From positions 22,878,001-22,942,000 of the forward strand of contig OX597832.1 in assembly GCA_951406725.2 (NCBI GenBank): 64,000 bases of DNA, given 5' to 3'. This stretch comes from Octopus vulgaris (lineage: Eukaryota). The notes beneath the pieces are model-generated. The model saw only the letters and a program-made list of their open reading frames with translations. It was not told the DNA's origin and made no database searches. A program made the translations under genes and the position numbers. Below, in pieces: positions 13,851 to 16,258 of the stretch (the first letter of the stretch is position 1; every line of letters begins with the position of its first letter).

Positions 13851-15228
13851 ACCAAATAGATCCCTTCCAACACATTGCTATGATGCACCCCAACTACTCC
13901 AGCCCGCAATATGCACATATCGTCGGTCACTAAGGGACATGCTCAACTATTTAAGGTCAAGCAACTGAGACACAAATTTGTGGTATTGAGTACAACACGT
14001 GTTGTAGCCCGTATAAGAATACATCTTGTAGCTCTGTCCCCCGCAATATTTGCATAGCGAGTGTGTTTGTCTGATAGTTTCCTTTATTCTCCATATCTTT
14101 ACCATAATATTACTAATTCCCTTGTTGTTGCTGTTGTATCGATTATAATTTTACTTTCACCAAATTTTTTGATAAAATCGATTTAAGCTGGAGTCGAACT
14201 TTTGTTTTGATCAAAGATTTCTTGATGCTTTAATATATCGAGAGATTCTTTATGATTTAGCGAAAATCCTTAAAGTAACATCCGGGTTTCTTTGATTTTG
14301 TTTACTTATTTTTCTTTGTTATTTCATATTCTTATGATATTTGTTGCTCGTTTGCTTTAGTGGTTTCCAATAAGGAAAGAAAATGAAGTATTTAAGTGGG
14401 TGAGTATGTATACATATATATTTAAAACACACACATATACACATACACATACTTTCAGTATCTAAGACGTTTTAATCTAACATCATTAAATGTATTGTTT
14501 ATTTTTTCTATTTGTCTTATTTCTGTAGTTTTAGGATAGACGAAGCGCCTAATCTTCTTTGTCAATACTTGTGTCTATAACATAATTTCATTCCAGAATG
14601 AATGAAAAAACACAAATATCACAAAAGAATTAAATTTTATTGTAGAAAAATCGTATTTGAATAGTTTTTCTTCCGAAGACCATAGGTGACATATCATAAA
14701 TCAAAATCTATCTAGTATGGCTCCGTATATTCGTATATTTGTTTTCAATGTTTGTACTTTAGCATTGCAAAGAGATTTTGCAACCTGTTTGTGAAAAAGA
14801 AACGAAGAACAGAAATTAATTGAGAAAAACACAAAAACATTTTAACTTATTTGTGTTACTATACTTTGAGATAATTGTATATTGTCGGGTGAATGCAGAG
14901 TTAGCTTGCTTGACACGTCGAACGATCGTTTATTTTAACACTTAAGTGGTAGTTCACTGAGCGTCTGACAACGAATCCAGCAGGTTAGAGCTCTAAAGGA
15001 GACATCCCGGAGAGATATAATTGATTGGAGTGAATACAGAGGTTACCGCATGGTTGACTTTCCTTTCTTTAGCTCACATAATAATTGTGATACGAACCAT
15101 CGAGGAAAAGTCTTAGTCACAGCCGGATTTGCTAGAGCTATCAACAAAACCTTCAAATCACGCCTTACCATCTATTTACGTTCATTATTTACATTCGACG
15201 GATATTTGTCCTCATCTTGTTTGTTGTT

Positions 15229-15274
15229 AACACAACGTTTCGGCTGATATACCCTCCAGCCTTCTTCAGGTGTC
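15229..15274 (-). ncRNA. Minimal type-I hammerhead ribozyme motif
   Basis: GACAC-CUGAAGA-A-GGCUG[gaggguauau]CAGCC-GAAA-CG-UU-GUGUU: stem I GACAC/GUGUU, 5-bp stem II, palindromic AACGUU stem III. Confidence 0.75.
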
Positions 15275-15345
15275 TTGGGGAAATTTCGGACCTGGGATCT
15301 CATCCCTAAGTTATTTTTCGATGTTGTTATTATTATTATTATTAC

Positions 15346-15406
<61 letters not shown>

Positions 15407-15756
15407 CATGTTGTTGCTGCTGCTGCTGCTGTTACTGTTGCTGTTGTTGTTATTGTTCAGATCGCTGCTTGGAATCGAATCTTGGGGCTGAAGAAAGCTG
15501 GAGGGTATATCAGCCGAAACTTTGTGTTAACAACAAACAAGATGAGGACAAATATCCGTCGAATGTAAATAATGTAAATAATTTAAATAATGTATATAAT
15601 TTATCATCTCTTAAATATAGAACTGTATCTATTTATGCTTCTATTATATATTTAATTAAGATATATGCCAATGGCATCAGAGATGATTTCAACAGGTAGG
15701 GAACTGAGAATTAGAAGAAATGGAGTAAATGTCACAAGGTATCTTCCTCGACGCTC

Positions 15757-15821
<65 letters not shown>

Positions 15822-15889
15822 GTAATAATAATAATAAAAACATCGGAAAATGCCTTAGGAATCGGAACCCAAGTTCGAAATTTCCCCAA

Positions 15890-15935
15890 GACACCTGAAG
15901 AAGGCTGGAGGGTATATAAGCCGAAACGTTGTGTT
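15890..15935 (+). ncRNA. Minimal type-I hammerhead ribozyme motif
   Basis: GACAC-CUGAAGA-A-GGCU...AGCC-GAAA-CG-UU-GUGUU. Confidence 0.72.
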
Positions 15936-16258
15936 AACAACAAACAAGATGAGAACAATCTACTGCCCTGGGTTGGTACTTCATTTATCAAATCCGAAAG
16001 GATGAACGGAAGAAATTAACTATGTTGCGAGCTGGAACAAAAACTACATTGCATCGAATCTGGAAATGTGCTGCCCATGTAGTACTAGGTACATTGTATC
16101 AGCAAATAATAGGTGGAGGTCACATTTGGAGGAACTTTAACTCTGAATTATCTTCAGCAGGTTGAACTGAATTTAAATAGCATCATTTGCAGTAGTTCCT
16201 CTCTTTCATGTCGTGTTTGTGCCGTTAGCATCAACATAATTGATTGTCCTTCGTTCTC

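Follow-up and report, generated by a model that had tools for sequence, protein, structure and literature searches.

A stretch of 64,000 nucleotides of Octopus vulgaris DNA (assembly GCA_951406725.2, contig OX597832.1, positions 22,878,001 to 22,942,000 of the forward strand; hereafter the window) contains four copies, A to D, of a short repeat carrying a minimal hammerhead ribozyme, which an earlier note made from the letters alone had taken for a possible retrozyme or Penelope-dependent short interspersed nuclear element (SINE). Comparison of the genomic copies makes it close to certain that this repeat belongs, as its pseudo-long terminal repeat (pLTR), to an autonomous Penelope/Poseidon retrotransposon; the tRNA-derived head with which it begins is probably an RNA polymerase III (Pol III) promoter serving the whole element. 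The open reading frame (ORF), the hammerhead, the inverted arms, the tails and the target duplications are ordinary Penelope biology; the head and the absence of TTTT from the sense strand are the unusual part.

The autonomous element and its genomic copies

By walking 5' with two DNA searches, a majority sequence was assembled in a script, giving a unit of 2655 bases that comprises a tRNA-like head, an (AAT/AAC)n microsatellite, a start codon, an in-frame hammerhead and an ORF of 835 amino acids with reverse transcriptase (RT) and GIY-YIG domains, followed after 23 bases by the next head. The 835-codon frame is uninterrupted in this majority sequence, starts 34 bases upstream of the CUGA of the hammerhead and passes through both the hammerhead and the tail of the short repeat, the latter being the first 40-50 codons of the ORF. 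In the flanks of genomic copies, a Penelope-type endonuclease C-terminus lies directly upstream of the tRNA-like head: the ORF end adjoins the head in seven distinct-marker loci and in all 15 ORF-selected loci that bear the ORF-end marker, the other 15 of these 30 loci being without it. The pLTR, tail and ORF start are continuous in 17 aligned loci; a pLTR stands upstream of the ORF start, as a partial tandem, in L092, L095, L098, L108, L115, L116, L118 and L119, and the ORF end precedes the upstream pLTR in L079 and L108. The junction between ORF end and head is also bridged by contigs of four runs labelled as other organisms, one of which may be the assembly's own sample. Contigs from four presumed RNA runs span the pLTR and portions of the ORF, a coverage that bears neither on the start, end or strand of transcription nor on its level.

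Because the ORF end adjoins the head, and because pLTR, tail and ORF start are continuous, the repeat was assigned as the pLTR of this element. The assignment agrees with the earlier note in its link to Penelope and in its order of tRNA-like promoter, microsatellite, hammerhead and tail. The separate non-coding element or SINE that it also proposed is not what was found, since the ORF end is directly upstream in the marker-bearing loci and the same variants occur in solo and ORF-linked copies.

Pfam returned an RVT_1 match of 39.8 bits against a cut-off of 29.6 and, on the piece from locus L076, no GIY-YIG match; the 835-residue frame contains what we take to be DKG, GLPK, YVDD and GIY-YIG/CCHH-like motifs. 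Protein searches gave 1630 homologues, the nearest 61-72% identical and the named ones coming from barnacle, insects, anole and starfish. Unlike Poseidon, the Neptune/Nematis elements have a Zn-finger linker between RT and endonuclease; the frame is without a CxxC linker, is 40% identical to an Anolis sagrei protein and was placed in a tree of 24 rows holding no named clade references. The barnacle Amphibalanus amphitrite has a close relative (cluster P0142-P0151, 56-60% identity), a possible hint of horizontal transfer among marine animals.

In the host genome assembly (G000; 2.8 Gb in 227 contigs, microsatellite-rich), a 35-base core is matched exactly 2121 times, a head pattern 1236 times and a tail pattern 3873 times, and none of the three has a match in its reversed control; given 2121 core matches against none in its control, the repeat is not a product of chance. 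From these counts and from the exact-pattern recovery among copies selected otherwise (13/114, 7/61 and 14/127), the family may be estimated at roughly 10,000-35,000 arms, which diverge from the majority sequence by about 4% outside CpG sites. The tie between the B-box segment and the hammerhead in other copies, on which the earlier note had made its proposal depend, was observed genome-wide: the head is in line in 19/30 hammerhead-selected copies, and 25/30 head-selected copies continue to the hammerhead.

In unit coordinates, the 3' ends of the copies form two classes at about +245-255 and +275-285, some 30 bases apart. An inverted arm is present on the 5' side in 16/30 and 18/30 sampled loci, and the best flank match measures 11-15 bp in 20/29 inverted insertions as compared with 3/22 direct ones. 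Among 106 arms forming a set not selected on head, hammerhead or ORF (the unbiased arms below), 15 continue into the ORF for more than 20 bases. At the microsatellite, a junction with other AAT tails is common in headless copies (18/69 arms stop at +83 to +103); the microsatellite as a mere insertion target was rejected, the tract being internal to the pLTR. At four diagnostic sites no variant is exclusive to solo copies, except one rare variant confined to four solos, and neither tandem arrays of the short unit nor circles were seen among the genomic copies. A tail repeat of 9 bases at unit +230 to +255 (window 15562-15600) varies in copy number, 30 of its 34 length variants being multiples of nine with the frame preserved.

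The head as a putative Pol III promoter

When aligned with host tRNA-Arg(ACG) genes, the head is identical at 51/73 bases and scores 68, as against 26.5 +/- 4.3 (maximum 52) in 2000 shuffles. By hand count on this alignment, none of the 11 fixed A- and B-box positions has changed and their tRNA spacing is retained, versus 34/53 positions kept outside the boxes; both boxes, for which the earlier note had suggested a genome-wide look upstream of the hammerhead, are thus present in the head. The cloverleaf is lost, ARAGORN found no tRNA in any of 15 head-bearing loci, and of 31 related elements whose sequence continues beyond the ORF end, none has A plus B boxes there. The same genome also has, at G000:C2:211887720-211907120, some 19 tRNA-Arg(ACG)-like copies grouped together, with a spacing of about 206 bases between many of them.

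Pol III is expected to start about 13 bases before an A box. In the octopus unit the A box begins 13 bases after +2, and it is around this position that the copies show a sharp 5' edge. Of the unbiased arms, 42 reach +15 and 22 of these stop between -6 and +15, a rate of 0.034 stops per base compared with 0.002-0.004 in plain stretches, which corresponds to an excess of about tenfold. Once ORF-linked arms and clear fold-backs are set aside, 66 head arms are left, of which 63 have their 5' end at +1 or further downstream and not one in the interval -11 to 0; these ends peak at +1/+2 and at +8, the latter being the first tRNA base. Some 15-20 of the 42 arms continue beyond the edge and into the ORF end, for which a template longer than the unit is needed.

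TTTT, the stop signal of Pol III, occurs 0 times on the sense strand in the 2844 bases of the element. For the ORF, 2.9 occurrences were expected under a synonymous shuffle (P 0.029) and 5.1 under a third-position null (P 0.0016). The controls were Penelope ORFs from metagenomes, 48/79 loci having been dropped as they had no open frame of 1200 bases; the 31 related ORFs that were left represent 24 families and show no depletion of TTTT, with 246 seen versus 216-224 expected, and only 1/31 is without it. GGGG is missing from 10/31 of them, and as its absence is so common among related ORFs, the result with T appears specific. Decayed single copies of the element contain 0.41 TTTT per kb versus 2.9 in T-matched controls, and in most of 30 copies the first TTTT of the flank is met 95-360 bases beyond the hammerhead.

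On these features, transcription of the whole element by Pol III is rather probable, and we infer that the hammerhead would cleave the product. Pol III would start at about +1/+2, 13 bases ahead of the A box of the upstream pLTR, read through the ORF and the second pLTR and stop at the first T run in the flank. By extension from the anole element Poseidon_Ac (PAc), the element protein would then nick both DNA strands and begin reverse transcription at an internal position of the RNA, about +250 or +280. A linear transcript would be copied only to its start site, yielding SINE-like copies of about 280 bp and head-to-head pairs, and tandem read-through, a template jump or a circular RNA cut by the hammerhead and re-joined would allow copying to go on into the ORF end. 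Being uncapped, the RNA would have to be translated independently of a cap; its unstructured (AAU/AAC)n leader might assist in this, which is speculative. The whole of this reading, namely a Pol III-transcribed coding element with a captured tRNA promoter, an ORF purged of terminators, cap-free translation and two fates whereby linear RNA would give tens of thousands of SINE-like copies and a re-joined 2.65-kb circle the ORF-bearing ones, is put forward tentatively and is somewhat more likely to fail in one of its parts than to hold in all of them.

Several points weigh against Pol III as the polymerase. Under a dinucleotide shuffle, 2.5 TTTT are expected in the ORF with a P of only 0.058; GGGG is also absent from the element (P 0.039, dinucleotide shuffle), its sense strand is T-poor (22%), and the test compares a majority sequence with single-copy controls. 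One of the controls, the closest metagenome relative L189 (45%), is without TTTT over 2 kb of ORF and has a T-rich pLTR with no tRNA head. The 5' edge overlaps a short palindrome, at which fold-back junctions are seen in 9/115 head arms, many +1 ends resembling short fold-backs, and as 5' palindromes are known in Adineta pLTRs with TATA/initiator (Inr)-like promoters, a sharp edge alone does not identify the polymerase. A two-codon upstream frame lies inside the A box and an uncapped Pol III RNA is a poor message; furthermore, Drosophila virilis Penelope has a LINE-like (long interspersed nuclear element) internal promoter (PMC2377424; here and below, cited papers are described from the parts of them that were accessible). 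As to the role given to the ribozyme, a hammerhead dimer is predicted to be 1.7 kcal/mol less stable than two monomers, and the signs of hammerhead cutting in the copies, detailed below, are weak.

A rival reading is an ordinary Penelope driven by RNA polymerase II (Pol II), in which the tRNA-like head would be a passenger SINE fragment inserted in the pLTR and the edge would result from a Pol II start or from palindrome fold-back. Known pLTRs have Pol II-type promoters and 5' palindromes, fold-back junctions are seen at the palindrome, the TTTT deficit is moderate on its weakest null, and a capped RNA gives a simple account of translation. We nevertheless consider this unlikely, because both boxes have been kept while the rest of the tRNA decayed, the gap from ORF stop to head is a mere 23 bases with no TATA-like motif seen, the related ORFs show no TTTT depletion, and no separate SINE body follows the head in 30 head-selected loci.

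The abundance of solo copies, which outnumber ORF-bearing ones (15/106 as given above), also brings to mind a division of roles, with Pol III making short RNAs, so that solo copies would be a true Penelope-dependent SINE with its own masters, and Pol II making the message. Full heads with both boxes are common, short transcripts could end at the first flank TTTT, and a hammerhead SINE of the Pol III kind has a precedent in schistosome Sm-alpha (PMC6765202). This is quite improbable, however, as apart from the rare variant in four solos there are no solo-specific variants at the four diagnostic sites, and the absence of TTTT from the ORF would be left unexplained. In addition, solos extend only to ORF +125 or +155, whereas a PAc template needs the ORF as far as +172 (PMC11167929), and by analogy they would be poor templates. 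Taken together, the shared diagnostic variants and the missing stretch to +172 make the solo copies look like by-products rather than a self-amplifying SINE.

If Pol III does transcribe the element, it would provide a natural case of a Pol III message with cap-independent translation. The whole reading with its two RNA fates, if true, would also show how a SINE can arise straight from the promoter repeat of the autonomous element that is its partner, and would give the Penelope hammerhead a role. To our knowledge, the products of Pol III are regarded as short RNAs that are not translated; the Penelope promoters described are Pol II-like, and the Pol III promoters known in terminal repeats belong to non-autonomous elements. 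The fixed start site that such a promoter would give renders the role of the hammerhead and the origin of the pLTR tandem testable, since linear and circular templates predict different copy ends. For annotation, it means that some 10,000-35,000 repeat arms that would be labelled tRNA SINE are Penelope ends.

The hammerhead and the relation to known systems

In copies A (15229..15274, minus strand; predicted cut 15234/15233) and C (15890-15935, plus strand; predicted cut 15930/15931) the hammerhead is intact and consists of CUGAAGA with one extra A, stem II, GAAA, a loopless palindromic ACGU, the GUU cut site and stem I. At minimum energy both are predicted to fold as hammerheads, with a stability no better than that of shuffles (z -1.13 and -0.28). 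Copy B, 5'-truncated plus decayed, is without the 5' arm of stem I and is altered at G10.1 and in the stem III palindrome, and copy D does not fold as a hammerhead despite its intact core, a mismatch being present in stem I. The four copies announced by the earlier note are all there, two of them with a complete hammerhead, one broken and truncated and one mismatched in stem I. A pattern scan of the whole window, the kind of search that the note had advised, matched A and C only. Rfam scans reported neither hammerhead nor tRNA here, giving only microsatellite-driven miRNA matches, because the minimal hammerhead form and the decayed cloverleaf score under the models.

All the features of a minimal hammerhead of Penelope-like elements (PLEs) are found: the CUGANGA/GAAA/UH core, the extra base 9-10.1, the G10.1-C11.1 pair, a palindromic loopless stem III and stems I and II. 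As in the metazoan examples of Cervera and de la Pena 2014 (PMC4209133), the palindrome is the loopless 15.2-16.2, stem I is short and stem II longer, and copies are mostly single and truncated or paired on opposite strands; nothing in the octopus ribozyme itself differs from them. The layout is kept with other stem sequences in 9/10 related loci examined, and the main polymorphism of the family falls on the free position 7 (84 T and 23 A in 111 copies). The core was expected by the earlier note to be better conserved than its flanks, a test that fails among the copies (mismatch 3.4% versus 4.0%, same 111 copies); such equality is uninformative, because neutral decay after insertion predicts it. 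Other minimal-hammerhead families, whose stem II is short and whose hammerhead strand is T-rich, exist in the same genome (L151-L180, e.g. G000:C1:2762499-2762526), one such second family giving 185 pattern matches in G000 versus 3 in the control. In 26 non-family loci out of 30, tried as a within-genome control, no ORF like that of the element was found within 1.5 kb, and these families are probably pLTRs of other Penelope-like families.

Regarding cleavage, 5' ends of 9/102 arms lie at +191 to +200, near the cut site, representing seven separate insertions where about 3 were expected (P ~0.04), and deletion starts peak at the cut site, with 23 versus 0-8 in the other 10-base bins (213 copies). 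Both excesses could stem from sequence features at the same place, namely a palindrome and a short TG repeat. A retrozyme as envisaged by the earlier note, i.e. a non-coding unit excised by its own hammerheads and spread through small circular RNAs, would have the intact minimal hammerhead and these slight excesses in its favour but can practically be dismissed, since the ends of the copies, at +1 and +250/+280, are removed from the cut site at +195/196 by about 195 bases on the upstream side and 50-85 bases on the downstream side, neither circles nor tandem short-unit arrays were seen, and the unit passes without a break into coding ORF at both of its ends.

The closest described parallel in organization is PAc of the green anole, whose ORF begins at the hammerhead and which has two internal RT start sites and an optional tail (Frangieh et al. 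2024, PMC11167929); the two classes of 3' ends among the octopus copies agree with these sites and this tail. Both elements have a single ORF that combines RT with GIY-YIG at its C-terminus, an ORF start that overlaps the hammerhead with the cut site in frame, partial tandems, and two RT start sites within the first 110-160 bases of the ORF, which give the optional tail (PMC11167929). The octopus pLTR differs in starting with an A/B-box head followed by (AAT/AAC)n and in the absence of sense-strand TTTT, the accessible PAc text speaking only of 'a promoter in its pLTR' (PMC11167929). With Adineta vaga Pen2a and endonuclease-containing (EN+) PLEs it shares a pLTR of about 200-280 bp including the first codons, an inverted 5' copy, a 30-40-bp tail on one end, a target duplication and a palindrome at the pLTR 5' end (PMC3846280; Craig et al. 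2021, PMC8557442). Unlike in the octopus, Adineta pLTRs have TATA/Inr-like motifs, and the terms 'tRNA' and 'Pol III' do not appear in the accessible main text (PMC3846280); the duplications also differ, being 11-15 bp in the octopus element versus 8-10 bp in EN+ PLEs (PMC3846280, PMC8557442).

The nearest prior ideas are Sm-alpha (PMC6765202) and TRIMp3 (PMC10886601), both of which are non-autonomous. Sm-alpha likewise is a short repeat with a Pol III-type promoter upstream of a hammerhead, but it is non-coding, often tandem and has a canonical hammerhead, whereas the octopus unit belongs, as its end repeat, to a coding element (PMC6765202). TRIMp3 elements (Cassandra, Helenus, Ajax) similarly have a Pol III promoter derived from a small RNA in the terminal repeat, but they are non-autonomous LTR elements that have both a PBS (primer-binding site) and a PPT (polypurine tract), in contrast to an autonomous Penelope-class element (Kojima 2024, PMC10886601). 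Where TRIMp3 are recognized by two LTRs, PBS and PPT, no ORF and a 4-5-bp duplication, the octopus element has an ORF and duplications of 11-15 bp. Animal non-LTR retrozymes are also hammerhead-bearing, non-autonomous sequences related to pLTRs (PMC7229834; bioRxiv 10.64898/2026.07.22.740005); those are tandem non-coding units cut into circles, unlike the octopus copies, which are dispersed as solo or head-to-head pLTRs (PMC7229834). The words 'tRNA', 'Pol III' and 'octopus' are not found in the accessible main text of the retrozyme preprint (bioRxiv 10.64898/2026.07.22.740005).

By the usual description of a tRNA SINE, the unit does have a 5' tRNA-derived head with A and B boxes; it is not an independent non-coding family sharing only the tail of its partner, the whole unit including the head being part of the autonomous element. 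Octopus tRNA SINEs named OK, OR1 and OR2 were reportedly described by Ohshima and Okada in 1994, OR1 and OR2 being said to derive from tRNA-Arg and to be a few hundred bases long. Judging from this description, the short form could be OR1 or OR2. Citing papers, in their accessible parts, call OR1 or OR2 a CORE-SINE, unlike the octopus unit, in which the microsatellite follows the head with no body in between. The literature searched yielded no paper that describes this octopus element or a pLTR with a tRNA or Pol III promoter, Repbase, Dfam, supplements and the 1994 paper lying outside that search. Two surveys of octopus repeats list, in the parts available, Penelope and tRNA-SINE families without linking them (PMC13282606, PMC8967140). 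The family may already have been named among the 1994 octopus SINEs, in Repbase or in the repeat libraries in the supplements of PMC13282606 and PMC8557442.

Copies and neighbouring features in the window

The four copies of the window show a pairwise likeness of 88-98%. Copies A and B are a single head-to-head insertion within a 13-bp target-site duplication (left 15170..15182, right 15627..15639, both on the plus strand; 11/13 identical). Arm A (15183..15487, minus strand) is a 5'-truncated pLTR copy containing the 3' half of the tRNA head, the microsatellite, the ORF start, the hammerhead and a short tail that ends at the upstream RT start site (unit ~+246). Arm B (15488..15626, plus strand) is the inverted arm of the same insertion, begins at CUGA within its broken hammerhead and carries a long tail that ends at the downstream RT start site (unit ~+280). 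Arm B as an independent decayed copy was rejected in view of the short tail of A, the long tail of B and the shared duplication.

Copy A is the only one of the four with a remnant of the tRNA-Arg(ACG)-derived head (15444..15487, minus strand), whose A box is lost and whose B box (15471-15481) is damaged by a 7-base deletion that takes out G53. On the same strand, the (AAC/AAT)n tract (15325..15457; 15346-15457 by Tandem Repeats Finder, TRF) occupies the interval between head and start codon inside the pLTR, and the start codon of the 835-residue frame (15301..15303) is followed 34 bases downstream by CUGA. The tract and the B-box-like word that the earlier note had pointed out upstream on the minus-strand copy are thus both present. 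Copy C (15757..15958, plus strand) is a (TAA)n tract plus a headless pLTR fragment, 3'-truncated at unit +223, with the repeat match at 15838-15958, and copy D (37514..37640, minus strand) is a headless fragment spanning the start codon to the short tail.

After copy C, a fragment of another abundant tRNA-type SINE is found at about 15974-16000. That SINE is also seen in the window at 16285-16495, 3434-3612, 43435-43634, 46356-46523 and 62311-62696, with about 11 further matches. Behind a (TAA)n tract at 55553-55948 lies what we take from its motifs to be the C-terminal end of a restriction-endonuclease-type LINE ORF; the 3' end of that LINE family also sits ahead of headless pLTR copies in loci L045 and L051. 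Decayed transposase-like frames are located at 54681-54998 (minus strand) and 31232-31600, presumably, from their motifs, a Tc1/mariner-like and another DNA-transposon-like stretch.

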